A DNA stretch of 64,000 nt from an uncultured Chloroflexia bacterium (GCA_963826225.1 CAWGWF010000001.1:988391-1052390); one strand, 5' to 3'; positions 21,298 to 55,360 are shown, numbered from the stretch's first letter. Notes: generated from the sequence alone by a model not told the origin. Numbers and translations: made by a program.

Positions 21298-21326
21298 CGG
21301 GCCGGCCGTTGGGTGGCCTGCCGGCC

Positions 21327-21734: not shown

Positions 21735-21877
21735 GGCGTGGCTGAGGCCTCCTCGGTCGGGGCTGCCGCGGGCGCGGCACCGTCGGCGGCAGAGGATACA
21801 CCGGTCCGGGGACCGGGGCCGTGAGTGGTGCGAGAGAACCTGCTGGTAGACTCGACCCGCCCCGGACGGAGGACCTC

Positions 21878-22399
21878 GTGGACGATCTCAACGCGCTCGT
21901 GAGCCCATCGATCGGCGCCATCGCCGTGGCGCTCGGGATCGCTTGTGGCGTGCTGATCGTGGCGGTGGTGATCCTCTGGCGCCGCACGTCCCGGCTGGAC
22001 CGGCGTCTGCAAGGGCTGACTCGTGGCGCGGAGGGGCAGAGCCTCGAGGCCATCCTCGACGCGCACCTGGACAAGGTGTACGCGGTGGCCCGCGACGTGG
22101 ACGAGCTTGCCGCGCGCTCGGCTGTCCTGGAGGCGACCCAGCGGCGGACCCTGCAGCGCATCGGGCTCGTGCGGTTCAATCCCTTCGAGGACACCGGCGG
22201 CAACCAGAGCTTCGCACTGGCCGTCCTCGACGCGCGCGGCGACGGGTTCGTCGTGAGCAGCCTGCACGCCCGGACCGGCACCCGCGTCTACGGCAAGGCG
22301 GTCGCCGGCGGGCGCTCGGAGTCCAACCTCTCGGCCGAGGAGGCCGAGGCGGTGCGGCTCGCGCTGGCCACCGGGACGGGCGCGACCGGCGGCTCCTGA
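21878..22399 (+). CDS. DUF4446-like protein
   Basis: N-terminal TM segment and the conserved block RFNPFEDTGGNQSFALAVLDARGDGFVVSSLHARTGTRVY. I chose the GTG at 21878, which is preceded by GGAGGA. The ORF also extends to a GTG at 21821. Confidence 0.6.
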   Translation: MDDLNALVSPSIGAIAVALGIACGVLIVAVVILWRRTSRLDRRLQGLTRGAEGQSLEAILDAHLDKVYAVARDVDELAARSAVLEATQRRTLQRIGLVRFNPFEDTGGNQSFALAVLDARGDGFVVSSLHARTGTRVYGKAVAGGRSESNLSAEEAEAVRLALATGTGATGGS

Positions 22400-22453
22400 T
22401 CGCCGCGCGGCCGTGACACCGGAGCTGGCACGGACTCACGCCATCCTGGCGGC

Positions 22454-25400
22454 ATGCCCCCTATCGAGCGTCCCACGCGACCCGCTCCCCCTGTACGTCC
22501 GGCGCCCGCTGCGGGCGCCCGCCCCGTGAAACGCCGTTCTCCACGGGGTGACCCGGCCCAGCTGGTGCAGATCCCGGTCTGGGGCCAGGTGGAGGTGACC
22601 GCGGACGAGCCGGAGCCCGAGTCCGGGCTCGAGAGCCTTCTCGCCGGGTTGAACCCGGAGCAGAAGCGCGCAGTGACGCACGGCGACGGGCCGCTGCTGG
22701 TCGTGGCCGGCGCGGGCACGGGCAAGACCCAGGTCATCACGCGGCGGATCGCGTGGCTCATCGCCACCCGCCGAGCCCGTCCCGCGGAGATCCTCGCCCT
22801 GACCTTCACGGACCAGGCGGCGGACGAGATGCAGGTCCGGGTGGACCAGATGGTCCCGTACGGGTATACGGACACGGCGATCTCCACGTTCCACGCGTTC
22901 GGTGACCGGCTGATCCGGGAGTTCGCCCTGGAGCTCGGGCTGCCGACGGACGTCCGCGTCCTGTCGCGGCCGGAGACCGTCGTGTTCATGCGGGAGCGCC
23001 TGTTCGAGCTCGGGCTGGACGAGTACCGGCCACTGGGGGACCCCACCCGGTTCCTGGACGCGCTGGCCACGCTGTTCTCGCGGGCCAAGGACGAGGACGT
23101 GTCGCCGGACGCCTTCCTTGCCCACGCGGACCGGTTGGGCGCCGGCGCACTGGAGGCCGCACGCACGCTCGAGGCGGCCGGAGGGGACGCCCTCGAGGCG
23201 GACCGGAGCGCCGCGGCGGCGCTGGACGAGGACGCGCGCCGGACCCGCGAGCTGGCCCGGGCCTACGGCCGCTACCAGGCGCTCCTCGCCTCCGTCGGAG
23301 CGGTCGACTTCGGGGACCAGGTCGCCCTCGCGCTGCGCCTGCTGCGCGAGTCGCCGGCCGCGCGGGACGTCGTTCAGCGCCGGTTCCGGTATGTCCTGGT
23401 GGACGAGTTCCAGGACACGAATCGCGCCCAGGCGGAGCTGGTCGCGCTGGTCGCGCAACGGCACCGGAACGTGACGGTGGTCGGGGACGACGACCAGTCG
23501 ATCTACAAGTTCCGCGGCGCCGCGATCAGCAACATCCTGGAGTTCCGGGAGCGGTACCGGCATGCGAAGGTCGTCGTCCTGCGGCGCAACTACCGCTCGC
23601 GCGGCCCGATCCTGGACGCGGCCTACCGGCTGGTGCGCCACAACGACCCGGACCGCCTGGAGGTGCGGGCGGGCATCGTGAAGCGCCTGGTCGCGGAGCG
23701 CGGGAGCGAAGGGGCTCCGGCCGTGCGCCACGAGGCATTCGCGACCGGTGCAGAGGAGGCGGACTGGATCGCCGCGGACATCGCGCGGCGCGTGCGGGAC
23801 GGGGCGGCGCCGCGAGATATGGCGATCCTGGTCCGGGCGAACGCCACCGCGGACCCCGTCATGCGCTCGCTCAACCTGGAGGGAATCCCCTGGCGGTTCT
23901 CGGGGACCTCCGGCCTGTACGCCCGGCCGGAGGTCAAGCTGCTCCTCGCCTTCCTGCGCGCGATCGCGGACCTCGAGTCGTCGGTGGACGTGTACGCCCT
24001 GGCCGCGTCGGAGCTGTACCGGCTGGGCGGCGAGGACCTGGTCGCGATCGTGAACATGGCGCGCCGCCGGAACCGGTCGGTGTTCGAGATCCTCGACGAG
24101 CTTGGCCGCCAGCCCGGGATCCTGCGCCTCTCGCCGGAGACGCGAGCCTCGGCGGCCGTGCTGGTGGCGGACCTGCGGCAGTACGCCGCCCTGGGCCACG
24201 AGCGGCCGGCCGGCGAGGTCATGTATGCGTTCCTCAAGGGGACCGGCTGGCTGGGACGCCTCGCCGGCGCCGAGTCGGTCGCGGCGGAGGAGGCGCTGTC
24301 CAACATCGCGCGTTTCTTCGACATCGTCCGGGCGCAGTCCGCCCTGCTCGCGGACGACCGTGCGGTGTTCGTGGCACGTCACCTCCAGACGCTGATCGCC
24401 GCGGGGGACGACCCGCCGACCGCGGATATCGACCCGGACGCCGACGCCGTCGCCGTGATGACCGTGCACAAGGCGAAGGGCCTCGAGTTCCCGATCGTCT
24501 ACCTGCCCGGGCTCGTCACCGGCCGCTTTCCGGCCGTCGGGCGGCGGGAGCCGCTGGCCCTGCCGATCGAGCTGGTCAACGAGACGCTGCCGGAGGGTGA
24601 CTACCAGCTCCAGGAGGAGCGCCGGCTGTTCTACGTGGGCATGACCCGGGCGCGGGACGAGCTCGTGCTGTCGCACGCGGCGGACTACGGCGGCCAGCGG
24701 GCGCGTCGCGTGTCGCCGTTCGTGCTGGAGGCGCTGGACCTGCCGGTGGCCGCCGGCGCGGCGGGGGCCGGCGCGAAGCCGGTCTCGCCGCTGGAGCGCC
24801 TGGGAGGGCTGGACCGGACGGAGCCGTCGCCGGCCGCCGTCCGGGTGCGCGGGGACGAGCCGCTGATGCTCTCGTTCTACGCGATCGACGACTACCTGAC
24901 GTGCCCGCTCAAGTACAAGTACGCCCATCTGCTGCGCGTGCCGCTGGCGCCCCACCACTCGATCATCTACGGCTCCGCGCTCCATGCCGCCGTGTCCGAG
25001 TTCCATCGTCGCCACGCGCGCGGCGACGTGATGACCGAGGACGACCTGTATGCGTCGTTCCTGGGTGCCTGGACCAACGAGGGGTTTCTGTCGCGGGAGC
25101 ATGAGGAGGCGCGCCTGGCCGCGGGCCGCGAGGCGCTGCGTCGCTTCCGGGACGCGCAGCTCGCGCCCGGTGCGGTCGTGCCCGCGTACGTGGAGCGGGA
25201 GTTCAGCTTCCTGCTGGACGGGGATCGCGTCCGGGGGCGCTTCGATCGGGTCGACATCGTGCCACGCGATGCCGAGGGACCGGGGACGGCGCCAAGTGAG
25301 GGACCGGCGCCGGTCGCGGACGTCGTGGAACCCACCCTGGAGCTTTCGCCGGAGCTGGTGACGATCACGGACTACAAGTCCTCGGACGTGCGTGACCCCG

Positions 25401-25684
25401 CCAAGGCCCGGCAGCGCGCCAGGGACTCGCTCCAGCTGTCGATCTACGCCATGGGCTACGAGGCGATGACCGGTCGCCTGCCGGACGCCGTCGCGCTTCA
25501 CTTCCTCGAGTCGGGTCTGGTCGGGTCGGTGCCCGTGGACCGCAAGCGCATGGACAAGGCGCGAGGGTCGATCCGGGCGGCCGCCTCAGGGATCAGGGCC
25601 AGGGAGTTCGCGGCCAAACCTGACCGCCTGTCCTGCAACTACTGTGCCTTCCGGGAGATCTGCCCGGCGAGCGCGGTGCGGTGA
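22454..25684 (+). CDS. UvrD/PcrA-type DNA helicase with a C-terminal Fe-S PD-(D/E)XK (RecB/AddB/Cas4-like) nuclease domain
   Basis: Helicase motif I (VVAGAGTGKT), motif II (VDEFQD) and a 2B region. The C-terminus has a DYK nuclease motif (ITDYKSSD) and a four-Cys cluster (TCPLKY ... CNYCAFREIC). It is 1076 aa. Confidence 0.85.
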   Translation: MPPIERPTRPAPPVRPAPAAGARPVKRRSPRGDPAQLVQIPVWGQVEVTADEPEPESGLESLLAGLNPEQKRAVTHGDGPLLVVAGAGTGKTQVITRRIAWLIATRRARPAEILALTFTDQAADEMQVRVDQMVPYGYTDTAISTFHAFGDRLIREFALELGLPTDVRVLSRPETVVFMRERLFELGLDEYRPLGDPTRFLDALATLFSRAKDEDVSPDAFLAHADRLGAGALEAARTLEAAGGDALEADRSAAAALDEDARRTRELARAYGRYQALLASVGAVDFGDQVALALRLLRESPAARDVVQRRFRYVLVDEFQDTNRAQAELVALVAQRHRNVTVVGDDDQSIYKFRGAAISNILEFRERYRHAKVVVLRRNYRSRGPILDAAYRLVRHNDPDRLEVRAGIVKRLVAERGSEGAPAVRHEAFATGAEEADWIAADIARRVRDGAAPRDMAILVRANATADPVMRSLNLEGIPWRFSGTSGLYARPEVKLLLAFLRAIADLESSVDVYALAASELYRLGGEDLVAIVNMARRRNRSVFEILDELGRQPGILRLSPETRASAAVLVADLRQYAALGHERPAGEVMYAFLKGTGWLGRLAGAESVAAEEALSNIARFFDIVRAQSALLADDRAVFVARHLQTLIAAGDDPPTADIDPDADAVAVMTVHKAKGLEFPIVYLPGLVTGRFPAVGRREPLALPIELVNETLPEGDYQLQEERRLFYVGMTRARDELVLSHAADYGGQRARRVSPFVLEALDLPVAAGAAGAGAKPVSPLERLGGLDRTEPSPAAVRVRGDEPLMLSFYAIDDYLTCPLKYKYAHLLRVPLAPHHSIIYGSALHAAVSEFHRRHARGDVMTEDDLYASFLGAWTNEGFLSREHEEARLAAGREALRRFRDAQLAPGAVVPAYVEREFSFLLDGDRVRGRFDRVDIVPRDAEGPGTAPSEGPAPVADVVEPTLELSPELVTITDYKSSDVRDPAKARQRARDSLQLSIYAMGYEAMTGRLPDAVALHFLESGLVGSVPVDRKRMDKARGSIRAAASGIRAREFAAKPDRLSCNYCAFREICPASAVR

Positions 25685-26571
25685 CCGTGGCGCCGCTGCC
25701 GCCCGATGCCCGCGCGGCGATCGACGCCGTGCTGGACGCGGCCGCCGGCGGGGCGGTGGTCGAGGCGGACAACCTGGAGGTGATGCGCGCGTTGCCTGCG
25801 GGCGTGGTGGACCTCGTCTACGCGGATCCGCCGTTCGCGAGCGGCCGGTCTCGGCGCCTGGCCTCGATCCGGACCGGGACGGGTCGTCGGACCCGGCGCG
25901 GGTTTGGGGGTCGCGAGTACCGCTACGAGGTGGTGAGCGACCTCGCCTGGCAGGACGACCTCCCACTGGACGAGCATCTCGACGCGCTCCGCGTCAGGTT
26001 GATGGAGATCCGCCGTGTCCTCGCGGACCACGGATCGCTGTACCTCCACCTGGACTGGCGCACGGTTCACCACGTCCGCCTGCTGCTGGACGAGGTGTTC
26101 GGCGCCCAGCGGTTCCTGAACGAGCTCGTGTGGGCCTACGACTTCGGCGGCCGGTCCACTGACCGGTGGCCGCGCAAGCACGACACGATCCTGTGGTACG
26201 CGAAGGGGGACCGCTGGCTGTTCGACCGCGACGCGATCGACCGGATCCCGTACCTTGCTCCCGGGCTGGTGGGACCGGAGAAGGCGGCGCGCGGCAAGCT
26301 GCCGACGGACGTTTGGTGGATGACCATCGTCCCGCCGGGATCCGCAGAGCGGACCGGCTACCCCACCCAGAAGCCGGTGCGGCTCCTGGAGCGGATCGTG
26401 GCTGCCTCCAGCCGCCCGGGGGATCTCGTGCTGGACCCCTACGGGGGCAGCGGGACGACCGGGGTTGCCGCCGCCCGGGCCGGCCGCCGGTGGCTGCTGG
26501 TGGACCGGAATCCGGCGGCGGTGGCGATCGCCCGGGCCCGGCTCGCCGCGGAGCAGGCAGGCGGAACGTGA
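25681..26571 (+). CDS. Beta-class DNA methyltransferase (N6-adenine/N4-cytosine type, PF01555-like)
   Basis: Motif IV DPPF comes before motif I (DPYGGSGTT) and the FxGxG-like segment. The GTG start overlaps the helicase stop (GTGA). Confidence 0.8.
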   Translation: MTVAPLPPDARAAIDAVLDAAAGGAVVEADNLEVMRALPAGVVDLVYADPPFASGRSRRLASIRTGTGRRTRRGFGGREYRYEVVSDLAWQDDLPLDEHLDALRVRLMEIRRVLADHGSLYLHLDWRTVHHVRLLLDEVFGAQRFLNELVWAYDFGGRSTDRWPRKHDTILWYAKGDRWLFDRDAIDRIPYLAPGLVGPEKAARGKLPTDVWWMTIVPPGSAERTGYPTQKPVRLLERIVAASSRPGDLVLDPYGGSGTTGVAAARAGRRWLLVDRNPAAVAIARARLAAEQAGGT

Positions 26572-30191: not shown

Positions 30192-30980
30192 GTGGTCGTG
30201 ACCGGATCCGCGGCAGCCGCCCTCGCCCGGCTGTATGACCTGGACCTGGCCGAGGACCCCGGCGACCTCGACCTGTACCTTGCGCTCGCGGCGCGGACCG
30301 GTGGTCCCGTGCTCGAGCTGGCGGTCGGCACCGGCCGGCTCGCGGTCCCCCTCGCGGCTGCCGGGTTCGACGTGACGGGCGCCGACACGGACCCGGCGAT
30401 GCTGGCCCGGGCCCGCCTGCGCGCGGACGACGCGGGGAGCGCGGTCGGGCGACGGATCCGGCTCGTGGAGGGCGACGCGCGGGCGTTGCGGCTGGCGGAC
30501 GCTGGAAGCTTCGGCCTCGCGTTCATCGGCTTGAACTCCATCTTCCTGGTCGGCGATCGGGCCGGCCAGGCGGCCGCCGTGGCGACGCTCGCGGCCCACC
30601 TCGCGCCCGGCGGGCTGGCCGTCCTGGATGCATGGCTGCCCGACGCCGACGACCTCTCGCGCTACGACGGTCGGCTCGTGCTCGAGTGGATCCGCGATGA
30701 TCCACAGACCGGGCGGACCGTCACCAAGACCGGCAGCGCGGCGTACGACCCGGCAACGGGCAGCGTCCGTTTGACGACGATCTTCGAGGAGGGTCTGCCG
30801 GGCGAGCCGGCGGTCCGTTGGATCCGGACCGACGACCTCCGGCTGGTGGGGCCGGACGGGCTGGCCGGCTACGCGGAGGCCGCCGGCCTGGAGGTCGAGC
30901 TGCTCGCCGGCGGCTACGATCTCGATCCGCTCGCACCCGGCGCGGAGCGGGTGGTGCTCCTGGCGCGGCGGCCCCGCTGA
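30192..30980 (+). CDS. Class I SAM-dependent methyltransferase
   Basis: Motif I LELAVGTGR and a downstream acidic residue (DTD). 262 aa. Confidence 0.7.
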   Translation: MVVTGSAAAALARLYDLDLAEDPGDLDLYLALAARTGGPVLELAVGTGRLAVPLAAAGFDVTGADTDPAMLARARLRADDAGSAVGRRIRLVEGDARALRLADAGSFGLAFIGLNSIFLVGDRAGQAAAVATLAAHLAPGGLAVLDAWLPDADDLSRYDGRLVLEWIRDDPQTGRTVTKTGSAAYDPATGSVRLTTIFEEGLPGEPAVRWIRTDDLRLVGPDGLAGYAEAAGLEVELLAGGYDLDPLAPGAERVVLLARRPR

Positions 30981-31054
30981 CCCATGCGACCGGGTCCCGA
31001 TGGGACCATCGGGCGGCGGGTCCGGCGGCCGGGTCGCGTGGTAGAGTCGCGCCG

Positions 31055-32194
31055 ATGCCGGACCAGATCCGCCTGCTCGTCGTCGAAGACGTCCCCCAGG
31101 TCGCCCAGTACATCCGCGGGCTGCTCAACTCGCAGTCCGCGATCAAGCTGCTGGACGTCGTCAACGACGGGTCCCGCGTCGAGCGGCTGATGGCCGAGCT
31201 CCGCCCGGACGTGGTCCTCGTGGACGCCCTCCTGCAGGGCCGTATCAAGGGCATGGCGCTCGTGGAGCAGATCCATCGCTCCCCGAACCGGGTGCCGGTG
31301 ATCGTGCTCACGGTGCCCCAGCAGCCGGTGGCGACCGGCGTGGACCAGGGGATCCACGGGGTCCTGACGATGCCGTTCACCGGGTACGAGCTGGTGACCC
31401 GGCTCCAGGCCGTCCACCAGGCCGCGGCCGTGGCGGACAACGCGGGCACCGCGCGGATGATCACGGTCTTCGCCCCCAAGGGCGGCGTGGGCAAGACGAC
31501 GATCGCCTTCAATCTCGCGGTGGGGATCGGCCAGCTCGGGCAGCGCGTCGTGCTGATCGACGGCAGCATCCAGTTCGGCGACATGCGGGCGGTCCTCAAG
31601 GTCCCCCTCGAGACGCCGTCGCTCCTGGACCTGCCCACGGACCGGATCCAGGAGTCGGACCTGCAGGACGTGCTGTGGCGGGACCCGTCGGGGATCGACA
31701 TCCTGCTCGCCCCGCCGCGCGTCGAGATGGCCGAGATGGTGACCGTCCGCGACCTCGAGAAGACGCTCTCGCTGCTGCGCCGGGTCTACGACTTCGTGAT
31801 CGTGGACACGCCCGCGGTCGTCAACGACGTCAACCTCGCCTTCCTCGACGCGTCCGACACGATCCTCGAGGTCGTGACCTACGACTCGACCACGATCCAC
31901 AGCACGATGGTGATGGCCGACGCGTTCCGGATGATCGGCTACCAGCCGACCAAGGTCCGCTATATCGTGAACCGGGCGGATTCGCAGGGCGGGATCGACC
32001 CCGGGGTGCTCGAGCGCGCCCTGGGCCGCAAGCCGGAGTACCACGTCCGTTCCGGCGGGCCGCTGGTCACGAACGCCAACAACGAGGGGATTCCGTTCGT
32101 GCTGGCCGACCCGTCCGCGGACATCAGCCAGGACGTGATGCGGGTGGCGGCCGAGCTGGTCGGCCGGGGCGCAACCGCCGCGGGCCACAGGTAG
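31055..32194 (+). CDS. Receiver-like domain fused to a CpaE/TadZ-type ParA/MinD ATPase (paralog 1)
   Basis: The N-terminal REC-like domain has the Asp but carries MP instead of the conserved KP. The C-terminal deviant Walker A KGGVGKTT is intact. A TAGAGT -10-like hexamer ends 7 nt before the ATG. Confidence 0.8.
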   Translation: MPDQIRLLVVEDVPQVAQYIRGLLNSQSAIKLLDVVNDGSRVERLMAELRPDVVLVDALLQGRIKGMALVEQIHRSPNRVPVIVLTVPQQPVATGVDQGIHGVLTMPFTGYELVTRLQAVHQAAAVADNAGTARMITVFAPKGGVGKTTIAFNLAVGIGQLGQRVVLIDGSIQFGDMRAVLKVPLETPSLLDLPTDRIQESDLQDVLWRDPSGIDILLAPPRVEMAEMVTVRDLEKTLSLLRRVYDFVIVDTPAVVNDVNLAFLDASDTILEVVTYDSTTIHSTMVMADAFRMIGYQPTKVRYIVNRADSQGGIDPGVLERALGRKPEYHVRSGGPLVTNANNEGIPFVLADPSADISQDVMRVAAELVGRGATAAGHR

Positions 32195-37150: not shown

Positions 37151-38065
37151 ATGAGCAGCACGCCCGCGGTGGTGGTGGTTGGCTCCGCGTGCCGGGATCT
37201 CGTCGACGATGACGAGCGGGGCTGGCGGCTGGGCGGAGGGGCGTCCTTCTCCGCGCTCGCGCTCGCGCGCCTGGGTCTCTCGGTCGGAGCCCTCGTCGTG
37301 GCGGACCCGCTCGCCGAGTCCTCGACCGAGATCCAGATGATCCGTGACGCGGGCGTCGAGGTCGTCGTCGTGCCCGGCCTCCGGGGTCCCGTGTTCATCA
37401 ACACCGAGACACCGACCGGGCGGATCCAGCACACCCCGCAGGTGTCGGACCCGGTGCCCGTCGCGGCGCTGCCGCCGCACTGGCGCGGCGCCGACGCCTG
37501 GGTGTTCGCACCGGTCGCGGCCGAGGTGACCGACGACTGGGCCCCCGTCCCGCCGGAGGGCGCCCTCGTCGCGCTGGGCTGGCAGGGCCTGCTCCGCGTG
37601 CTCATCGCCGGCGGGCCGGTGACCCACCTCCCACCGGGCCCTTCGCCCGTCGTGAGGCGCGCGGACCTCATCGGCGTCGGTCGCGACGACTTCGACGTGT
37701 CCGTCACGCCGGCCGACCTGCTCCAGTTCGTCCACCCCGGGGCCACCCTGCTGCTGACCGACGGGGTGCACGGGGGTGTTGCCGTGGACGCGGGGCCGGG
37801 CGCGACGGAGGCACGCCGCCGCCCGTGGCGCAGCATCCCCATTGCCGCGTACGTGGACGCGGTGGGGGCAGGCGACACGTTCCTCTCGGGTGTGTTTGCG
37901 GCGCGGGTGGAACCTGCGCTGACCTCGTCGTGGACGGGCGAGGACCCGGATCTGCGCCTGGGCGCCGCGATGGGATCGCTCATCCTCGAGGGCCCGGGCC
38001 TGTTCGGTGTGGCCGACCGGGAGACCGCGATCGGCCGGATGTTCGGCGGCACCAACCCGGACTAG
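37151..38065 (+). CDS. PfkB-family carbohydrate/nucleoside kinase
   Basis: N-terminal GG region (VVGSACRDL) and the C-terminal GAGDTF anion-hole motif. Confidence 0.75.
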   Translation: MSSTPAVVVVGSACRDLVDDDERGWRLGGGASFSALALARLGLSVGALVVADPLAESSTEIQMIRDAGVEVVVVPGLRGPVFINTETPTGRIQHTPQVSDPVPVAALPPHWRGADAWVFAPVAAEVTDDWAPVPPEGALVALGWQGLLRVLIAGGPVTHLPPGPSPVVRRADLIGVGRDDFDVSVTPADLLQFVHPGATLLLTDGVHGGVAVDAGPGATEARRRPWRSIPIAAYVDAVGAGDTFLSGVFAARVEPALTSSWTGEDPDLRLGAAMGSLILEGPGLFGVADRETAIGRMFGGTNPD

Positions 38066-39549
38066 GGAGCCCCCTCAGCGCTGCTCCGGGAGCGCCGGCG
38101 CAGGCGGTCCACCAGGCGGCGCCCGCGGCGCTGCAGGTCCGCCTCGAGGCGTGGGTGGGGGCGCCCGAGCGCCCGCTCACGCTCCAGTGTGCGCCACGCC
38201 GCGCGGGTTGCCGCGAGCGCGCCCGCCGGATCGCCGAGGCGGTGCTCGCGCAGCTTCGCGACCTCGATCCACGCGATCGCGCCGAGGCCGCCCCCGCCCG
38301 CGGCCGCCATCTGCCAGGCCTCGGCAGCCTCAGCCCAGCGGCCGAGGCGCCGGAGCACACGCGCCCGTTCCGCGGCCAGGTGCTCGTCCGTCCAGCGGTC
38401 CGGTGAGCCCCACGCCGCCGCGCCCGGCGCCGGACCGAGCGCTCCGCCCCGTCCGTTCGCCAGGTGCCCGCGCCACCCGGCCCGCGGCGGGGCGCCGCCG
38501 AAGTGCGGGCGGGTCCTGGCCTCCCACCACGGCTCCAGCTCATCCGCCCGCGCCTCCCGGATCCGCGCCGGGGTGACGGGCGTCCGGCCGAACGGATCGC
38601 GGGCCGGGGACGGGGAGGCGAGCGCATCGTCGAGGCAGTCCAGCGCGTCCGCATGGCGCCGCTCCCGGCCGTACGCGCGGGCGAGGCCCGCCAGGTCTCC
38701 GCGGGGCGCGGCGAAGCGCTCGCTACGCTCGCCGTACCGCCGTTCCACGTGGGCCAGCAGCAGCCCCAGCGAGCGGACGTCCTTCTCGTTGTGGATCACG
38801 ACCCCGGCCAGCCGCTCCACCGGGCCGCCGCGCAGCACATCAAGGTAGATGCCCGGGATCTCCCAGCCCTCGACGTCGCCAGTCCGGCTGATCCCCAGCA
38901 GCTCGCCCTCCACCGTCTGCAGGCGGGCATCCTCCATGCGGTGACGAAACACGCGCCGGACGAAGGGCAGCAGGTCCAGGTGACCCGCGTGGACCGGCGC
39001 GGCCCGGCCGGCCAGCCGGTACCGGGCCTCGATCAGCGGCCAGTCGAAGCCGCGGCCGTTGTAGGTCACCAGCCAGGTCTCCGGCGTCACCCAGGCCTCG
39101 ATCTCGGCCAGGAGCGCCGGCTCGTCGGCGTGGTCGGGCAGCAGAAGCTGGGTCTGGCGGAACTCGCCACCGTCCCAGCGGGCGAGGCCGACCAGGAACG
39201 CGAGCGTGCCGGCGGCCGTCGCGAGCCCGGTGGTCTCCGTGTCCAGGCAGACCAGCGGCGCGTCCGCAGGCGGATGGCCGGGCAGGCAGGCAAGCCGTTC
39301 CCGGTCCAGGGGGATGTCGACCGCGGCCACGACACGCCGTACGAGCGCGCCCGCCGGCGTGTCCGCGACATCCGCGCCGAGCGCGATCGCCAGGCGTGCC
39401 GCCAGCGCCGCGCTCCGGCGCCCCGCGAACGGGGCTCGCGCCGGTGGCTGCTCCGGTCCGACGGGCGGCCCGCCGGCCCGGGCGAGAGTCGCCCGCAGGT
39501 TCGCCAGCCGCCGCTCGCGGCCGACCGCCGCGAGGGGCTCCGCCGTCAT
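38062..39549 (-). CDS. MrfB/YprB-like DEDD-family 3'-5' exonuclease with C-terminal TPR-like repeats
   Basis: RNase H-like fold with LVCLDTETTGL, YNGRGFDWPL and H-x-D motifs. The C-terminal half is a helical repeat. The ATG at 39549 overlaps the stop of the upstream helicase gene (ATGA). Confidence 0.75.
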   Translation of the reverse strand: MTAEPLAAVGRERRLANLRATLARAGGPPVGPEQPPARAPFAGRRSAALAARLAIALGADVADTPAGALVRRVVAAVDIPLDRERLACLPGHPPADAPLVCLDTETTGLATAAGTLAFLVGLARWDGGEFRQTQLLLPDHADEPALLAEIEAWVTPETWLVTYNGRGFDWPLIEARYRLAGRAAPVHAGHLDLLPFVRRVFRHRMEDARLQTVEGELLGISRTGDVEGWEIPGIYLDVLRGGPVERLAGVVIHNEKDVRSLGLLLAHVERRYGERSERFAAPRGDLAGLARAYGRERRHADALDCLDDALASPSPARDPFGRTPVTPARIREARADELEPWWEARTRPHFGGAPPRAGWRGHLANGRGGALGPAPGAAAWGSPDRWTDEHLAAERARVLRRLGRWAEAAEAWQMAAAGGGGLGAIAWIEVAKLREHRLGDPAGALAATRAAWRTLERERALGRPHPRLEADLQRRGRRLVDRLRRRSRSSAEGAP

Positions 39550-41852
39550 GCGACCGCGGCCCGCTCCCCGGCCGCCGCGCCCAGCGCCGCGAGGAGCCGC
39601 AGGGCGAGTGCCTTGCCGTCCACCTCCGGCTCCAGCCGCGGACCGGTGCAGGCCGGGCATCCCGCGTCGCACGGGCAGGCTTGGAGCAGCTCGGCTGCCC
39701 CCGGCACCAGCTCCGCGTGGCGAGCGAACAGGCGCTCGGACAGGCCCACCCCGCCGGGCATCGCCTCGTACAGGTAGATCGTGGGCGCCTCGTGGTGCGG
39801 CGATCGCACCTGGGACACGAGCCCGAGATCCCGCGGATCCACCATCAGCAGCACCGCGGCGACCGCCTGGATGGCCCGCCCGGCGCCGATCAGCGCCACG
39901 TCCAGCTCGTCCCGCCGCCAGCCCTGCGCCGCCCCCTCCGCGGTCAGCCAGTAGGCCGTCGTCTGGAGCTCGATCTCCGGCAGGTCGATGGGCCCCCAGC
40001 CCACGTTCTCGTCGGTCACGAACTTCAGCTTCTTGTAGAGGGTCACGAGGCTGGCGACCATGACCTCGCCGTGAACCCGGGTGCCGCCGGTGGCGGGTGA
40101 CGTCGCGAACACGTCCAGGGGCTTGAGGGTCACCGCCCGGTTGGCGTACGTGTAGTGGTCCGCGTCGATCCGGTGGACGTACGCCTTCCGCTCGCCCCAC
40201 TCGAGGCGATCCACGTGGTACTGGGCCGACTCGTGCATGTAGATCGCGTGCTCGTGGACCAGCACCTGGGCGCTGAACAGGTCCACCTCGCCCAGGACCC
40301 GCGGCCGGTCGGGGGTCGTGTCGATGATCACGACGTTCTCGGGGGCGGCGGCTCGCAGGGAGACCTCGGACGCGGGGAAGTTCTCCGAGCTCCAGTACCA
40401 CCGGCCGTCGTCGGCCTGGCGCACGTGCCCGCCCTCGCCCAGGAAGGCGAGCAGCTCGTCGGCGGGGCCGGGGCCGAACCACTCGCCGGGCTCGAACGGG
40501 AGCTCGAACGTTGCCGCCCGCAGGTGGGCGAGCAGGACGTGCAGGTTGTCCGGGTCCAGCCGCGCCTCCTCCGGCCGACCGCCGAGCACGAACTCCGGGT
40601 GGTGGATGACGTACTGGTCAACGGGCGCCGGTGACGCGACCACGATCGCGACGCTCACGTCCCCCCGACGTCCGGCCCGGCCCATCTGCTGCCAGGTGCC
40701 GGCGATCGAGCCCGGGTAGCCGGCCAGCACGGCGACGTCCAGCCGTCCGATGTCCACGCCCAGCTCCAGGGCATTGGTGCTGACCACGCCCAGGATCTCG
40801 CCGTCGCGGAGGCCCCGCTCGATGGCCCGCCGCTCCGTGGGCAGGTAGCCGCCGCGGTAGCCGCGGACGCGGGTCCGCGGACCCAGGTCCTGGCGCAGCC
40901 GCTCGCGCAGGTTGGAGAGCATGATCTCCACCGCCACCCGGGACTTGCCGAACACCACGGTCTGGCGGCCGGCGCGCAGGAACGGCAGGGCCCAGCGCTC
41001 CGCCAGGGTCAGCGCGGAGCCGCGCGCCCCGGTGGAACCGTCCAGGATGGGCGGGTCCACCAGCAGGATGTGCTTCTCGCCGGACGGCGCGCCGTTGCGG
41101 TCCACGAGCTGCACCGGGCGTCCGGTGAGCGTCTCGGCCAGCTCCGCCGGGTTGCCGATGGTGGCCGAGCAGCAGACGATGACCGGGTGGCTGCCGTAGT
41201 GCGCGCACAGCCGCAGAAGCCGGCGCAGCACGTTCGCGACGTGGCTGCCGAACACGCCCCGGTAGGTGTGCAGCTCGTCCACCACGATGACCCGCAGCTG
41301 CTCGAACAGCTGGAACCACTTGGTGTGGTGGGGGAGGATCGCGGAGTGGAGCATGTCCGGGTTGGTGACGACGACCTGGCCCGCCTTGCGGATGGCGGAG
41401 CGGATGGGCGCCGGCGTGTCCCCGTCGTAGCAGGCGGCCGAGACCTCGAGCCCGGCGTCCCGGACCAGCTCCCCGAACTCCGAGACCTGGTCCTGTCCGA
41501 GGGCCTTGGTGGGGAACAGGAACAGCGCCCGGGCCGACGGGTCCTCGGCCAGGGCCTGGAGGACGGGCACCGTGTAGCACAGCGACTTGCCGGACGCCGT
41601 GGGCGTGACCACCACGATGTCCCGGCCCTCGTGCACGGCCTCGATCGCCTCCGCCTGGTGGACGTACGGGCGCTCGATGCCGCGACCGGCGAGCCCGGCC
41701 CGGATCCGCGCGTCCAGCCAGTCCGGCCAGTCCCCGTGAACCGCCTCACGGACCGGGATGACCTCGTGATGGACCACGCCCCGGGCCAGCGACGGCTCCG
41801 CCAGCAGCCGGTCCAGCACGGCCTTCGTGGGCGCGGGGGCATAGGTGCGCAT
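39546..41852 (-). CDS. MrfA/YprA-like DEAD/DEAH-box helicase with a C-terminal DUF1998 zinc-ribbon domain
   Basis: Walker A TPTASGKS and DEAH-type motif II (VDELH). The C-terminus has CPCDAGCPACTG (DUF1998 four-Cys). RBS GGAGG. Confidence 0.85.
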   Translation of the reverse strand: MRTYAPAPTKAVLDRLLAEPSLARGVVHHEVIPVREAVHGDWPDWLDARIRAGLAGRGIERPYVHQAEAIEAVHEGRDIVVVTPTASGKSLCYTVPVLQALAEDPSARALFLFPTKALGQDQVSEFGELVRDAGLEVSAACYDGDTPAPIRSAIRKAGQVVVTNPDMLHSAILPHHTKWFQLFEQLRVIVVDELHTYRGVFGSHVANVLRRLLRLCAHYGSHPVIVCCSATIGNPAELAETLTGRPVQLVDRNGAPSGEKHILLVDPPILDGSTGARGSALTLAERWALPFLRAGRQTVVFGKSRVAVEIMLSNLRERLRQDLGPRTRVRGYRGGYLPTERRAIERGLRDGEILGVVSTNALELGVDIGRLDVAVLAGYPGSIAGTWQQMGRAGRRGDVSVAIVVASPAPVDQYVIHHPEFVLGGRPEEARLDPDNLHVLLAHLRAATFELPFEPGEWFGPGPADELLAFLGEGGHVRQADDGRWYWSSENFPASEVSLRAAAPENVVIIDTTPDRPRVLGEVDLFSAQVLVHEHAIYMHESAQYHVDRLEWGERKAYVHRIDADHYTYANRAVTLKPLDVFATSPATGGTRVHGEVMVASLVTLYKKLKFVTDENVGWGPIDLPEIELQTTAYWLTAEGAAQGWRRDELDVALIGAGRAIQAVAAVLLMVDPRDLGLVSQVRSPHHEAPTIYLYEAMPGGVGLSERLFARHAELVPGAAELLQACPCDAGCPACTGPRLEPEVDGKALALRLLAALGAAAGERAAVA

Positions 41853-41863
41853 GCCGCCTCCGG

Positions 41864-41875
41864 TTCGATATCGAA
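41864..41875. promoter_or_regulatory. Perfect 12-bp palindrome TTCGATATCGAA, 12 nt upstream of the mrfA-like start codon
   Basis: Seen directly in the sequence, adjacent to the RBS. The half-site order is GTTC-N6-GAAC, which is not the GAAC-N4-GTTC LexA box. Confidence 0.35.
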
Positions 41876-42033
41876 CAGATGAGCGAATTGTGCCGCGAGT
41901 CTACGACACCGTAGGCCGGACGTGGTGACAGCTCTGGTGTCACGGCCGTGCGACACCGGCGCGGATACCGAGGCACCGCCGGGAGGCGATTCCGATTTGA
42001 CACGCCGATTCGGGCGCAGCTACCCTCGGCCCG

Positions 42034-42597
42034 ATGCCTCGACGTGCCGCGCGCCCGACCGCCGCCGCCGACCCCCGGGAGGACCCCGCCGAGGAGGCCG
42101 CCCCGGATCCCACGGTCGCCTCGCCGACGCCGGCTGCGGCCGCCGCGTTGGGATCGCTGGCGGACCTGCCGGTCGCCGGCCTGACCCGACGCCGGGTCGC
42201 GCTGCTCCTGGGCGCGCTGCTGGCCGCCTGGGTGATCCTGCTGTTCGCCCGCCAGGTCGGAGAGGCCAGCGAGGCCAGCTCGCGGGCCGACGCGATGCGT
42301 GCGTCCAACGCGGCGCTCGAGGTCGAGGTGTCGGCGCTCCAGGGCGAGCTGGCCCTGATCCAGCGCGAGGCCTACATCGTGCAGCAGGCGCGGCAGTACC
42401 GGTTGGGCACGTCGCGCGAGATTCCGTTCATCCTGGCCGACGACGCCCCGCCGCTGGCGCCGGACGCGCCCGGCTCGGCCGCCGTTCGGCTGGGGGCCGT
42501 CACCGAGCGGACGTCGCCGCTGGAGTCGTGGCTGGACCTGCTGTTCGGGTCCGGCGAGGACCCGGGCGAGCCCACGGAGGCGTCCGCCGGCGGCTGA
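42034..42597 (+). CDS. Septum-formation-initiator family protein (FtsB/DivIC-like)
   Basis: Pro-rich N-terminus, a single TM segment, then a coiled-coil with a leucine-zipper-like heptad (ALEVEVSALQGELALIQRE). Confidence 0.5.
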   Translation: MPRRAARPTAAADPREDPAEEAAPDPTVASPTPAAAAALGSLADLPVAGLTRRRVALLLGALLAAWVILLFARQVGEASEASSRADAMRASNAALEVEVSALQGELALIQREAYIVQQARQYRLGTSREIPFILADDAPPLAPDAPGSAAVRLGAVTERTSPLESWLDLLFGSGEDPGEPTEASAGG

Positions 42598-43289: not shown

Positions 43290-45341
43290 GTGCTCGACTC
43301 GCTGTTCAACTTCCTGGGCGGTGGGGTGCTCATCGCACTCATCGGCGTCCTGATCATCGTCCTGATCGTCGCCTACGCGACGGGTCGCTTCAAGGTCGCC
43401 GGTGCCAACGAGGCCCTAGTGAGGACGGGCGGCACCCAGCTCAAGGTGGTTCGCGCGGGCCGCGTGATCGTCCTCCCGCTCATCCACAAGCTTGGCCGGC
43501 TCCACCTCTCGGCCCGCCAGATCAATGTCAACCTCTCCGACGCCGTCACCAAGCAGGGCATCAAGGTCGCCGTGCAGGGCGTGGCGACGGTCAAGATCGG
43601 CGGCGACGACGAGTCCATCCGCAACGCCGCCGAGCGGTTCGTGGACCGCGAGGACCAGATCGACTCGATCGTCAAGAACGTGCTCGAGGGCTCGCTCCGC
43701 TCGATCGTCGGCACGCTCACGGTCGAGGAGCTCAACTACGACCGCCAGAAGTTCCAGCAGGAGGTCCAGAGCGCGGCCAAGGGTGACCTCGCCACCTCCG
43801 GTCTCACGATCGACAACTTCACGATCCAGGCCATCCGCGACGAGGTCGGCTACATGGACCTCATCGGCCAGCAGGAGACGGCGCGCCGCGAGCGCGACGC
43901 CCGGATGGCCAAGGCGTCGGCCGACCAGGAGGCCGCCGTCCGCGAGGCCGAGGCCCAGCAGATCAAGCTCAATGCGCAGCGGGACGTCGCGCTCCGCGAG
44001 GCCGAGGTCGAGGCGCTGACCGCGGCCGCCGAGGCGAAGGCCGCCCAGGCGGGCCCGCTCGCCCAGGCCGAGGCCCAGCAGGAGGTCACCCGCCGCCAGA
44101 CCGAGCTCGCCCAGCTGGAGGCGGATCGCAAGCAGAAGGAGCTGATCGCCAGCACGATCCGCCCGGCCGAGGCCGAGGCGGAGGCCCAGGTCCGCCGCGC
44201 CGAGGGCGACAAGGGCGCACGGATCGCGCAGGCGCAGGCCGAGGCGGAGCGCGTCAAGCTCGCAGGCCAGGCCGAGGCCTCCGTCCAGGTCACCAAGGGC
44301 GAGGCGCTGGCCCGCGTCACCCTGGTCAACGCGGAGGCGACCGCCAAGCAGACGACCCTCGAGGGCAACGCCGAGGCCGGGATCACGTTCACCAAGGGCG
44401 AAGCGGAGGCCAAGGCGCTGGCCCTGCGCGCCGACGCCTACCGCCAGTTCAACGAGGCGGCCATCATCTCGACCGTCCTCTCGATGCTGCCGGAGATCGT
44501 CCGCGCCGCCGCAGAGCCGATCGGCCGGATCGAGAGCCTGACCGTGCTCTCGTCGGAAGGCGCGTCGGACATCGTCAAGACCACGACCCGGACGCTGGCC
44601 GAGGCATCGGCGACCGTCAAGGGCCTGACCGGGATCGACGTCCCGGAGCTGCTCCAGTCCGCGCTGGGCAGCGAGACCGCGGCGGCGCCGATGACAAGGG
44701 CCACGGCCGTGACCCGCCGGGCGAAGCCGGACGAGGACGAGGGTGACAAGGGCGGCGGGGCCGGCGGCGGCGCAGGCGACGGGGGGACCCCGGCCGCCGG
44801 TGGGTCGGGGCCGGCCGGGGACGCCGGCGGATCGGCGGCCGGCGCGTCCGCGCCGGGGGTGCCCGAGGCTCCCGTCGCCACGGCCGCGGCTGCGCCGGCC
44901 GCCGGCGAGTCACCGGAGGAACGCTTCGCGAAGGCCGCGGAGTCGATGCGCACCGCCGGGACCATGGCGGCCGCGCCGGCCGGTGACGCGCTCGGGGGAC
45001 TGACATCCGCCCTGCCGCCACATCCGCCGGTGTCGGACGTCCGGCCGTCGGACCGCCGCCGCAAGGCCGCCAACGCCGTCCTCGGCGCCGCAGGGCTCAG
45101 CGAGCAGGCGAGCCTCGAGGAGGCGGCCGTGAAGCTCGCCGAGGAGCTCCGCCGGATCCCCGGCATCGAGCGCTTCGGGGGCACGCGGCTGTCGGATCTC
45201 GAGCGGAGCGGCCCGCGCACCTTGCGCACCCTGTGGCGCGATGCACGCGGCGAGCTGCAGGCCCGCTACGAGGACGTGACGATCGGGATGCTGCTCGACC
45301 GGTACGAGCAGGCGCAGGGCGGAACAAGCCCGGAGCGTTGA
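43290..45341 (+). CDS. Flotillin-like SPFH/band-7 protein with a long low-complexity C-terminal extension
   Basis: N-terminal TM segment, SPFH domain, and the flotillin EA-rich coiled-coil repeats. There is a Gly/Ala/Pro-rich segment of about 150 aa, followed by a conserved C-terminal tail. Confidence 0.85.
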   Translation: MLDSLFNFLGGGVLIALIGVLIIVLIVAYATGRFKVAGANEALVRTGGTQLKVVRAGRVIVLPLIHKLGRLHLSARQINVNLSDAVTKQGIKVAVQGVATVKIGGDDESIRNAAERFVDREDQIDSIVKNVLEGSLRSIVGTLTVEELNYDRQKFQQEVQSAAKGDLATSGLTIDNFTIQAIRDEVGYMDLIGQQETARRERDARMAKASADQEAAVREAEAQQIKLNAQRDVALREAEVEALTAAAEAKAAQAGPLAQAEAQQEVTRRQTELAQLEADRKQKELIASTIRPAEAEAEAQVRRAEGDKGARIAQAQAEAERVKLAGQAEASVQVTKGEALARVTLVNAEATAKQTTLEGNAEAGITFTKGEAEAKALALRADAYRQFNEAAIISTVLSMLPEIVRAAAEPIGRIESLTVLSSEGASDIVKTTTRTLAEASATVKGLTGIDVPELLQSALGSETAAAPMTRATAVTRRAKPDEDEGDKGGGAGGGAGDGGTPAAGGSGPAGDAGGSAAGASAPGVPEAPVATAAAAPAAGESPEERFAKAAESMRTAGTMAAAPAGDALGGLTSALPPHPPVSDVRPSDRRRKAANAVLGAAGLSEQASLEEAAVKLAEELRRIPGIERFGGTRLSDLERSGPRTLRTLWRDARGELQARYEDVTIGMLLDRYEQAQGGTSPER

Positions 45342-55062: not shown

Positions 55063-55360
55063 CACGATGGGACGGCTCCCTCGTCGGTCGCGGCGGGGCT
55101 CCCGACGGGAGGCCCTGACCGCAATCCGGTGCGCCAGACATCGAGGAGGTCAGGGCACCGGATCCCGTGCATGTCCCGCCGCACCGTCACGGGCGTCGCC
55201 TGGACAGCGACCTCGGCCTGGATGCGGGGACGCCCACCCCCATGACGCTCCGGGGGCGCGGTTTCTCCAAGGGCGAAGCGGCCATTTCTGAGCGCGGTCG
55301 GGCCGAATGCCCCGCGTCGAGCGCGGCGGGCGGTGAGATACTCAGGCCGAGGTACCGAGA

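Follow-up and report, generated by a model that had tools for sequence, protein, structure and literature searches.

How the expression of a DNA-repair gene pair resembling mrfAB of Bacillus subtilis is controlled in a soil bacterium of the phylum Chloroflexota is the question raised by the locus analyzed here, which forms part of a 64,000-nucleotide stretch of a Limnocylindria chromosome (the window). The gene pair itself is ordinary and nothing new was found in the genes; the novelty lies in the promoter. An earlier note on this DNA had drawn attention to a perfect palindrome at the ribosome-binding site and to an array of three half-sites further upstream, and had proposed an operator other than the canonical LexA type.

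The first gene of the pair (39546 to 41852, minus strand) encodes a mrfA/yprA-like SF2 (DExH) DNA helicase of 768 amino acids with a C-terminal, four-cysteine MZB (DUF1998) domain. Pfam matches were obtained to DEAD (3.7e-34), MZB/DUF1998 (PF09369, 5.8e-18), Helicase_C, and WHD_HRQ1, and a phmmer comparison with B. subtilis YprA/MrfA (PDB 6znp) gave an E value of 2.8e-250 over the full length (residues 13-754 versus 8-747), with the zinc-cysteine motif CPCxxGCPxC aligned (CPCDAGCPAC versus CPCHDGCPSC). The SF2 DExH core, the wHTH, and the C-terminal OB-CON-DUF1998/MZB region with four Zn-binding cysteines that mark YprA-family helicases are all present, and the domain order is that of B. subtilis MrfA. 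By these comparisons, the protein is a full-length orthologue of MrfA/YprA; its score against TIGR03817 was 642 bits, under the cutoff of 874 bits. It had been described as a DEAH helicase with DUF1998, of which the DUF1998 assignment stands, but motif II reads DELH and not literally DEAH. An ATGA overlap at 39546 to 39549, as had been noted, joins the stop codon of mrfA to the start of a mrfB/yprB-like gene (38062 to 39549, minus strand) for a DEDDh 3'-5' exonuclease of 495 amino acids with C-terminal TPR-like helical repeats. The exonuclease assignment also held in the profile search (RNase_H_2, PF13482, 7.7e-30), and the core matched MrfB (PDB 8un9) with an E value of 2.5e-28 by sequence, so that the proposed likeness to the MrfA/YprA-MrfB/YprB arrangement is borne out for both proteins. 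8un9 was also the top Foldseek match of the AF2 model (pLDDT 77.5), and the DEDDh residues D103, E105, D169, H253, and D257 are invariant across 42 homologues. The TPR repeats claimed earlier are less firm: none reached the Pfam thresholds (best sub-threshold match TPR_2, E value of 7e-4, 19.9 bits versus a cutoff of 27), about 20 of 120 listed homologues have precomputed TPR matches, the AF2 model has, with high pLDDT, helix pairs at 283-311, 388-418, and 420-460 and one long helix at the end, and the Foldseek matches to TPR proteins, which speak for the assignment, are weak (E values of 0.004 to 0.06). Sequence and model together characterize the protein as a DEDDh exonuclease of the MrfB type whose tail is probably TPR-like. 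In B. subtilis MrfB, the TPR domain at the C terminus consists of three repeats and a capping helix; the DEDDh type and, going by the model, a helical-repeat tail are common to both proteins, whereas the Chloroflexota protein has an N-terminal extension of about 95 amino acids and, inserted within the TPR-like region, about 60 amino acids of low confidence (residues 321-382).

The pairing of mrfA and mrfB is kept in 78 of the 80 relatives' loci described below, and the 4-nucleotide overlap in 73. The operon partner of the helicase is the MrfB-like exonuclease, with no DISARM, Dpd, or Druantia component, and the neighbours are housekeeping genes. The pair falls into the "DNA-repair" branch of the YprA family, which is associated with MrfB, and published complementation needs close relatedness of the alleles (PMC12458937). 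The products, a 3'-5' helicase and a DEDDh exonuclease, correspond to the pair by which B. subtilis repairs adducts of the mitomycin C type. Mitomycin-C-specific, UvrABC-independent tolerance conferred by MrfAB has been reported from B. subtilis only, whereas the host phylum here is Chloroflexota, in which the function of the pair, including any specificity for mitomycin C, is putative.

The promoter was footprinted in 81 sequences, namely that of the window and 80 orthologous mrfA promoters from Limnocylindria (Chloroflexota), the relatives spanning 79 to 95% protein identity. In an unbiased MAFFT alignment, conservation of at least 90% was found only at GTGACA, TG.CAC, A...T, TA..CT, G..C...GT.C, and the ATG. 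The Shine-Dalgarno sequence of mrfA, read from the sequence as GGAGG (41857 to 41861, minus strand), lies 4 nucleotides upstream of the ATG, and GGAG is present in most relatives. The palindrome at the ribosome-binding site exists and even comprises 14 bp (GTTCGATATCGAAC, 41863 to 41876, containing TTCGATATCGAA at 41864 to 41875), a length for which about 0.01 perfect palindromes are expected by chance per window. As a regulatory feature, however, it did not survive: among the 81 promoters, the perfect palindrome of 12/14 bp occurs in the window's genome only, the next longest being one of 10 bp at a single locus. Because footprinting keeps only the arm at 41871 to 41876 (GTTCGA), the palindrome is regarded as this arm of a LexA-type box with a lineage-specific extension.

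This LexA-type SOS box occupies 41871 to 41886 (TCGAACAGATGAGCGA on the plus strand and TCGCTCATCTGTTCGA in gene orientation). It is an exact match to tCGAAC-N4-GNNCGa, the consensus derived from ChIP-seq of Streptomyces venezuelae LexA (PMC9380542). Boxes of the GAAC-N4-GTTC type have been reported in Firmicutes and Actinobacteria, and variations of them in Chloroflexi. Compared with CGAAC-N4-GTTCG, 16 promoters have no mismatch, 30 have one, and 24 have two (two or fewer in 70/81), and the columns G..C...GT.C belong to the positions with at least 90% conservation. The sequence is a 16-bp imperfect GAAC-N4-GTTC dyad that overlaps the promoter or transcription start, as expected of an SOS box. 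With its AT-rich flanks and its position between the -10 region and the ribosome-binding site, directly after a -10 hexamer (TAGACT, 9 to 12 nucleotides upstream), it resembles Gram-positive and actinobacterial LexA boxes, from which it differs in that one arm is degenerate (CGMWC) in many Limnocylindria relatives. On sequence criteria, it is a canonical LexA box of the Gram-positive/actinobacterial type, conserved in relatives. The claim of a non-canonical operator is thus contradicted at this box, but an operator of another kind exists as well. The LexA and RecA proteins of E. coli, used as tblastn queries, gave no match in the window or the 80 loci.

The other operator is a 19-bp dyad, GTGACA-N7-TGTCAC (41925 to 41943), which is without mismatch in the window and is predicted to be an activator site. 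It is the one conserved element of the supposed array of three half-sites; the third half-site, GACACC (41951 to 41956), is taken as a chance match, given that the commonest base stays at 0.47 or less at positions -12 to -7, upstream of the dyad. In the upstream columns generally, the commonest base reaches at most 0.47 to 0.71, and GGTGACA alone is no more frequent in the window than chance predicts. Phylogenetic footprinting, which the earlier note had suggested as a check, was passed by the dyad and failed by the palindrome and the third half-site: 43 promoters have the dyad with no mismatch, 33 with one, and 3 with two (zero or one in 76/81), and the arm columns are 94 to 100% conserved. 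In the proximal arm TG[T]C, all 79 of 79 promoters have the G and the C, and the middle base varies. The spacer is GC-rich and contains one invariant, asymmetric A oriented towards the -10.

Downstream of the dyad, two candidate core promoters were identified on the minus strand. The first, P1, has a weak nAnnnT hexamer as its -10, which stands exactly 10 nucleotides after the dyad in 76 to 77 of 79 promoters; A is found at its second position in 76/79 and T at its sixth in 77/79, with flanking columns at 0.35 to 0.55. The pattern TGTCAC-N10-SAnSST describes 77/79 mrfA promoters, whereas the window's own mrfA promoter, with TACGGT at 41908 to 41913, has a spacing of 11 nucleotides. No -35 partner and no TG extension precede the dyad-anchored hexamer in the mrfA promoters, and no sigma-70-type -35/-10 pair that could serve mrfA was found in the intergenic region, so that P1 should need an activator. 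The second candidate, P2, has the strong -10-like hexamer TAGACT (41898 to 41903); TAnnCT is kept 20 to 21 nucleotides after the dyad in nearly all relatives, with an extended -10 TGn in the more distant ones. Two relatives (L019 and L021) are without both -10 elements. The divergent gene on the plus strand, coding for a DivIC/FtsB-like membrane protein of 187 amino acids (41997 to 42597 including its promoter; DivIC match weak, 6.5e-4), is found opposite mrfA in 78/80 loci. It has a putative promoter of its own, with TTGACA (41997 to 42002), 18 nucleotides, TACCCT (42021 to 42026), and 7 nucleotides to the ATG at 42034; it is probably leaderless and is outside the regulated unit.

Several familiar kinds of element were considered for the dyad and rejected. 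A sigma-54 promoter (TGGCAC-N5-TTGC) has a TTGC that is missing here, and most sites read TGTCAC; the spacing is wrong for a CRP site (TGTGA-N6-TCACA); GTGACA would be a -35 at 23 nucleotides from the -10; a MerR-type site would have -35/-10 hexamers 19 to 20 nucleotides apart, of which there are none; and an RNA hairpin or terminator is excluded by arm variants that are not compensatory, the lack of a T-run, and the position upstream of the start.

A search for the motif in front of other repair genes, also suggested earlier, revealed it upstream of a UvrD-like gene, both in the window and at the homologous loci of five relatives. This second composite element (22413 to 22447, plus strand) consists of the dyad GTGACACCGGAGCTGGCAC at 22413 to 22431, a 10-nucleotide spacer, and CATCCT as the -10. 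The start codon at 22454 follows 6 nucleotides after CATCCT, which implies a leaderless mRNA. The gene (22454 to 25684, plus strand) encodes a UvrD/PcrA-family helicase fused to a PD-(D/E)XK (Cas4-like) nuclease, a protein of 1076 amino acids with AdnB/AddA-like architecture; Pfam matches were UvrD-helicase (6.8e-71), UvrD_C (2.5e-43), and PDDEXK_1 (5e-29), and all NCBIfam equivalog scores were under their cutoffs. All five homologous loci (L201 to L205, 73 to 86% amino acid identity) conserve the dyad with one mismatch as well as the N10 spacing, the nAnnnT hexamer, and the start codon 6 nucleotides after it, and TGTCAC-N10-SAnSST is found in 6/6 UvrD-like promoters. The gene is the second predicted regulon member. 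The occurrence of the composite element at mrfAB and at a gene 16 kb away would mark a small or larger LexA-independent repair regulon, of which two members are documented, mrfAB and the UvrD/PDDEXK gene.

Clear parallels exist between this layout and the promoters of WYL-type activators, a likeness to PafBC promoters having emerged only after footprinting. The mycobacterial PafBC motif, tGTCgg(N10)tA(N3)T, lies at -23 to -28 of promoters with no -35, and two Arg residues of PafBC read the G and C of its GTC triplet (PMC8635444). The Limnocylindria relatives have the same bipartite layout, with a GTC triplet whose G and C are invariant, N10, and no -35 (TGTCnn-N10-nAnnnT, the -26 element or mycobacterial "RecA-NDp"). 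Both systems have repair genes as targets, including a UvrD-type helicase-nuclease, as PafBC upregulates the AdnAB helicase-nuclease in Mycobacterium tuberculosis, and here the element stands beside a promoter predicted to be under LexA control, as it stands beside a LexA-controlled one at mycobacterial recA. Differences are equally apparent. The PafBC motif is non-palindromic and bound by a PafB/PafC heterodimer from the Pup-proteasome locus, the second HTH of PafBC contacting sigma region 4, whereas in Limnocylindria the element makes up the proximal half of a dyad that is perfect, which implies two DNA-bound HTH domains. GTC is followed by AC here and by gg in the PafBC motif, the Limnocylindria -10 is usually without the first T, and the host is not an actinobacterium and has no known pafBC or proteasome context. 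Because of the perfect dyad and the lack of a pafBC-like gene in the window, the element is classed as working like a PafBC site and not as being one. To our knowledge, PafBC has so far been described as a heterodimer of actinobacteria with a link to the proteasome, and we know of no PafBC-type (WYL-domain) control described in Chloroflexota.

Homodimeric WYL activators offer the other half of the comparison. They bind hexamer-N7-hexamer dyads with GAC/GTC that lie over the -35 position at a fixed distance to the -10, examples being DriD of Caulobacter (ATACGAC-N7-GTCGTAT) and SiwR of M. smegmatis (TAGGAC-N7-GTCCTA). The Limnocylindria dyad shares with these 19- to 21-bp sites the hexamer-N7-hexamer form, the GAC/GTC content, the position and fixed distance, the lack of a -35, and the association with DNA-damage genes. 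However, the half-site is GTGACA, compared with ACGAC for DriD and TAGGAC for SiwR, and GAC and GTC are 9 nucleotides apart (GAC-N9-GTC) and not 7 as in both. Furthermore, the DriD spacer is AT-rich, whereas that of Limnocylindria is GC-rich with its one invariant A, and the SiwR dyad abuts the -10. The spacing of 9 instead of 7, the lack of a palindrome in the site of PafBC, and the 11 nucleotides at the window's mrfA promoter count against a WYL activator.

From this arrangement we infer what binds the mrfAB promoter, in which direction it is regulated, where transcription starts, and that damage induces it, and we lean slightly towards a combination in which LexA represses and a homodimeric regulator resembling PafBC/DriD activates. 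The dyad, 10 nucleotides (11 in the window genome) upstream of a weak nAnnnT without a -35, would constitute the activator-dependent promoter P1 and would bind a homodimer of a wHTH-WYL regulator akin to PafBC, DriD, and SiwR. By sensing single-stranded DNA, this regulator would allow housekeeping RNA polymerase to use the hybrid promoter, with the gene-proximal TGTCAC playing the part of the PafBC -26 element. LexA, bound to the box downstream of P2, may hold P2 repressed and also stop transcripts that come from P1, up to its RecA-mediated cleavage, and the module of dyad and -10 may also drive the leaderless UvrD-helicase/PD-(D/E)XK-nuclease gene. More tentatively, we propose a LexA-independent damage regulon of Limnocylindria that is governed by a homodimeric PafBC-like WYL activator through a palindromic -26 element (GTGACA-N7-TGTCAC-N10-nAnnnT), with mrfAB under both LexA and WYL control.

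Overlap of a dyad with the -35 region is classical for repressors as well, and the dyad might be the operator of a non-WYL repressor (XRE/DdrO-like, a second paralogue of LexA, or a dimeric HTH protein of some other kind) that would occlude the -35/spacer region at mrfAB and at the UvrD-like gene, with derepression in place of activation. It spans about -41 to -23 from the predicted start, a common position for a repressor, and many dimeric repressors typically have palindromic sites of 19 bp. Pfam/NCBIfam scans of about 45 ORFs, moreover, detected no WYL-domain or other candidate regulator gene within the 64-kb window, so that the identity of the activator is one that we infer. On the other hand, a promoter with a weak -10 (S-A-n-S-S-T) and neither a -35 nor an extended -10 should be nearly inactive unaided. 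The spacing of dyad and -10, fixed to the nucleotide in 77/79 promoters, and the asymmetric spacer A facing the -10 suggest that RNA polymerase is contacted stereospecifically, and the layout coincides with that of PafBC promoters. Such a non-WYL repressor is judged unlikely. More doubtful is the view that mrfAB is a plain LexA/SOS gene transcribed from TAGACT and that the dyad serves a damage-unrelated regulator, such as a class-II-type activator near -41.5/-42.5, shared with the UvrD-like gene by chance. Both the LexA-type box and TAGACT are well conserved, and the dyad centre, 29.5 to 30.5 nucleotides upstream of TAGACT, is in a classical class II position. However, the UvrD-like promoters are without TAnnnT 20 to 21 nucleotides after the dyad, where the start codon is already reached at +23, so that the element common to both promoters is the N10 hexamer and not TAGACT; both targets, besides, are DNA-repair helicase/nuclease genes. 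The original proposal of TTCGATATCGAA and three half-sites as a promoter-specific, non-LexA operator array is hardly credible, for although all the sequences named are in place, 0/80 orthologous promoters conserve the perfect palindrome or the third half-site and the conserved half of the palindrome is an arm of the LexA-type box.

The dyad element, with a nucleotide-exact geometry that is kept across at least 80 species-level genomes of an abundant uncultured soil lineage, connects two repair operons and is built like the promoters that depend on PafBC. Should the proposed regulator exist, Chloroflexota would be added to the range of the WYL/ssDNA-sensing branch of the DNA-damage response of bacteria. 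The logic of a -26 element plus -10 would then not be peculiar to actinobacteria, and these would be the first hybrid promoters of the sigma-adaptation type outside Actinobacteria. The regulator would also represent a structural intermediate between PafBC, with one DNA-bound HTH, and DriD/SiwR, with two, and its site a natural palindromic variant for testing one versus two HTH domains on DNA in sigma adaptation.

Further sites were searched for in the window, in viral contigs, and in metagenomes. The RecA-NDp pattern TGTCRGTG-N8-TANNNT occurs at chance level in the window, with no occurrence at the mrfA promoter. A viral-contig scan for dyad-N10-nAnnnT gave about as many matches as expected by chance, and a few high-GC contigs with the element before a YqaJ-like exonuclease, transposase, or integrase were regarded as uninformative. 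Four metagenome loci (L085, L144, L124, and L172) were rejected as regulon members, as either the N10 hexamer or a repair gene that could be recognised is missing from them; the product of L085 had no Pfam match. As a side observation on WYL proteins, yafY of E. coli K-12 is a remnant of 147 amino acids. The motif is ready for use in predictions of the damage regulon from metagenomes of Limnocylindria. Among the matches listed in a metagenome scan for dyad-N20/21-TAnnnT, most were low-GC chance occurrences, and the high-GC ones were further mrfA promoters.

The mrfAB gene pair is preceded by a 19-bp dyad, GTGACA-N7-TGTCAC (41925-41943), which is a genuine, deeply conserved regulatory element and a predicted protein site. 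Phylogenetic footprinting was based on 80 orthologous loci from one-genome-per-species contigs (79-95% protein identity), with 230 nt upstream of the start codon compared per locus. Of 81 promoters, 43 match the dyad perfectly, 33 with one mismatch (76 of 81 with at most one) and 3 with two; the remaining two only seem to lack it, one owing to truncation of the locus and the other to a 1-nt indel. In an unbiased MAFFT alignment covering 79 promoters, the following blocks reach at least 90% conservation: GTGACA, one spacer A, TG.CAC, A...T, TA..CT, G..C...GT.C, and the ATG. The rest of the promoter drifts, including the downstream arm of a palindrome at the ribosome-binding site (RBS) and the third half-site of the three-membered array described in the earlier note, of which only the two half-sites forming the dyad are conserved. 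Variation within the dyad is centred, in both arms, on the symmetric fourth base (GTG[A]CA and TG[T]CAC) and is not compensatory, as befits a protein site and not a hairpin.

With the promoters anchored on the dyad, a hexamer with the consensus S-A-n-S-S-T is found exactly 10 nt past it, with A at position 2 in 76 of 79 and T at position 6 in 77 of 79 promoters; the columns beside it are 35-55% conserved, and the genome has about 14% A or T. An A at position 2 and a T at position 6 of the -10 element matter most for recognition by the sigma-70 family. The corresponding hexamer of the window, TACGGT (41908-41913, termed P1), lies 11 nt past the dyad, as compared to 10 nt in relatives. A -35-like hexamer and a TG extension were sought in the mrfA promoters, and neither was found. 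In the proximal half-site, the G and C of TG[T]C are invariant (79/79), and the middle base is T in 56, G in 15, and A in 8 cases. The spacer A at 41934 (position 11 of the dyad in gene orientation; 22423 in the second promoter described below) is invariant in all 79 mrfA and all 6 UvrD-like promoters, and most promoters carry C at the mirror position. In functional terms, the palindrome is therefore asymmetric and oriented towards the -10 element, which hints at either an RNA polymerase contact or an asymmetric binding mode.

The next good match to the dyad, and the only other one in the 64-kb window, is GTGACACCGGAGCTGGCAC (22413-22431, one mismatch). It is intergenic and directly upstream of a gene (22454-25684, forward strand) for a fusion protein of 1076 aa, in which a UvrD/PcrA-family helicase is joined to a PD-(D/E)XK nuclease. 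In all five homologous loci compared (73-86% identity), the dyad deviates by one mismatch, always at the same base, and is followed by the 10-nt spacer and an nAnnnT hexamer. The hexamers are CATCCT, CAGGAT, CATCGT, CAGGCT, GATGCT, and CATCGT, followed six nt later by ATG or GTG. This is the predicted geometry of a leaderless mRNA that begins at the start codon, which would make the hexamer the -10 element paired with the dyad. Leaderless expression is plausible in this organism, since the DivIC/FtsB-like gene divergent from mrfA also looks leaderless, its layout being TTGACA, 18 nt, TACCCT, 7 nt, ATG (41997-42036); many relatives retain the TTGACAC motif, at a distance of only 12-20 nt from the dyad. 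Across about 0.9 Mb of high-G+C DNA, the composite pattern was confined to the mrfA and UvrD-like promoters, aside from two chance-like matches in unrelated contigs; at one mrfA locus (L065) the dyad was recounted on the opposite strand. As to the neighborhood of the UvrD-like gene, its 3' end is overlapped or abutted by an N6/N4 adenine-type DNA methyltransferase gene (25624-26571) in the window and in three of the five relatives (L201-L203), and the other two have a HAD hydrolase at that position. Just upstream are genes for an MgsA/RarA ATPase of replication-associated recombination (19756-21564, reverse strand) and a DUF4446 protein (21821-22399, forward strand), the stop codon of the latter being 13 nt ahead of the dyad.

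The geometry of the dyad suggests a mechanism like that of PafBC, of which no case has been described in this phylum. The in vivo motif of mycobacterial PafBC is tGTCgg(N10)tA(N3)T, with its 5' part at -23 to -28, and the promoters are devoid of a -35 element; the G and C of the strictly conserved GTC triplet are recognised by two arginines of PafB, and PafBC slots in between DNA and sigma region 4, a process termed sigma adaptation (PMC8635444). The proximal half of the present element, TGTCAC-N10-nAnnnT, has the same layout, including the invariant G and C. However, PafBC is a heterodimer with a non-palindromic site, whereas the element identified here is a full dyad. In this respect it resembles the hexamer-N7-hexamer sites of the homodimeric WYL activators DriD (ATACGAC-N7-GTCGTAT) and SiwR (TAGGAC-N7-GTCCTA), which are placed across the -35 position, at a constant spacing to the -10 element, in promoters without a -35. 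With a GAC...GTC distance of 9 instead of 7, the present element is neither a DriD nor a SiwR box. The element combines features of both types, namely, a full dyad and a proximal arm in the PafBC register. The targets also fit PafBC, which induces the AdnAB helicase-nuclease in M. tuberculosis, and mycobacterial recA likewise carries one PafBC-type and one LexA-type promoter. The most likely candidate for the protein binding the dyad is a homodimeric ssDNA-sensing wHTH-WYL regulator. Profile scans of the ORFs of the 64-kb window revealed no WYL-type regulator gene, and pattern scans for the element in metagenome and viral contigs were swamped by chance matches. In three high-G+C IMG/VR viral contigs (L288:1076, L223:3692, and L275:1417, all reverse strand), a perfect dyad-N10-nAnnnT is located directly upstream of a gene, the targets being a YqaJ-like recombination exonuclease, a small ORF, and a transposase, two of them with an ATG 6 nt past the hexamer; the number of viral matches is compatible with chance.

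The earlier note had proposed operator control that is not of the canonical LexA type, but this is contradicted by a conserved LexA-type box at 41871-41886. The corresponding block reads (T)CG[A/C][A/T]CAnnnGTTC[G/T] in gene orientation, and the opposite strand in the window, TCGAACAGATGAGCGA, matches exactly tCGAAC-N4-GNNCGa, the consensus derived from ChIP-seq and SPR in Streptomyces venezuelae (PMC9380542). This consensus is matched perfectly by 16 of the 81 promoters, with one mismatch by 30 and with two by 24. In Firmicutes and Actinobacteria, LexA has the motif GAAC-N4-GTTC, of which variations have been reported in Chloroflexi (PMC4951493). The box begins 9-12 nt downstream of a well-conserved TAGACT/TACACT hexamer (TAGACT at 41898-41903 in the window, termed P2), thus over or just after the predicted transcription start. 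Since degenerate matches to the LexA pattern are common within the coding sequence of this G+C-rich genome, the assignment rests on conservation and position and not on occurrence. The palindrome noted at the RBS, TTCGATATCGAA (41864-41875), is present and even extends to a perfect 14 bp (41863-41876), but a perfect palindrome of at least 10 bp at this position was found in only one other of the 81 promoters (10 bp). Because the window site matches the LexA consensus, is conserved, and is placed after TAGACT/TACACT, the palindrome is best read as the conserved GTTCGA arm of the box plus a strain-specific mirror image, a predicted by-product of a canonical SOS box. Another near-perfect LexA-type dyad, TCGAACGGGAGCTCGA (40492-40507; one mismatch to TCGAAC-N4-GTTCGA), is located inside the mrfA coding sequence and could be due to chance in a G+C-rich ORF, or it could be a LexA site within a gene, as has been reported in Streptomyces.

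In the model proposed, mrfAB would possess a composite promoter. P1 would be an activator-dependent module composed of the dyad and a weak -10 element, and at least one further repair gene has this module as well. P2 would provide a stronger -10 element, and the LexA-type box downstream would act as its repressor site and hinder transcripts coming from P1. Two alternatives are possible, a repressor at the dyad or an activator unrelated to damage that targets TAGACT from about -42, but the weak core promoter and the lack of TAGACT in the UvrD-like promoters argue against both.

The gene pair itself is a known arrangement from the repair branch of the YprA family (PMC12458937) and is ordinary on its own. 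Its assignment to MrfAB was borne out. The helicase gene mrfA (39546-41852, reverse strand, 768 aa) contains DEAD, Helicase_C, WHD_HRQ1, and MZB (formerly DUF1998) Pfam domains, a DELH motif II, and aligns from end to end with the crystal structure 6znp of B. subtilis YprA/MrfA (E=2.8e-250, residues 13-754 with 8-747), including the four-cysteine motif. The exonuclease gene mrfB (38062-39549, reverse strand, 495 aa) has an ATG that overlaps the mrfA stop codon as ATGA (39546-39549), as had been noted; of 80 related loci, 78 retain the pair and 73 the 4-nt overlap. The DEDD assignment held under profile search, as did that of DUF1998: the exonuclease matches RNase_H_2 (7.7e-30) and the MrfB catalytic core 8un9 (E=2.5e-28), which is also the best structural match of its AlphaFold model (pLDDT 77.5), and all five DEDDh residues are invariant in 42 homologues. 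The TPR repeats claimed for its tail show only weakly in the sequence, the Pfam TPR matches being sub-threshold and precomputed ones occurring in a minority of homologues. In the model, the tail looks TPR-like, with three high-confidence helix pairs and a long capping helix, split by a disordered insertion of ~60 aa, and many of the weak Foldseek matches are TPR proteins. The protein differs from the crystallised B. subtilis core in its long N-terminal extension rich in Arg/Ala (residues 1-95), and its insertion (residues 321-382), which is Gly/Arg/Pro/Trp-rich and of low model confidence, contains W341, W342, G351, G352, and W359, all invariant among relatives.

The G+C content of the window is 70-77%, and the closest relatives of its genes are found in MAGs labelled Candidatus Limnocylindrales or uncultured Chloroflexia, which marks the window as part of a chromosome from Limnocylindria (Chloroflexota). 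Elsewhere it harbors two paralogous genes (30701-32194 and 58214-59935) for a response-regulator receiver domain fused to a ParA/MinD-type (AAA_31) ATPase, a cluster of MoxR AAA+ ATPase, DUF58, and transglutaminase-like genes (2669-7394), and flotillin (43290-45341) and NfeD (55337-56722) genes that are separated by FtsH and other genes.
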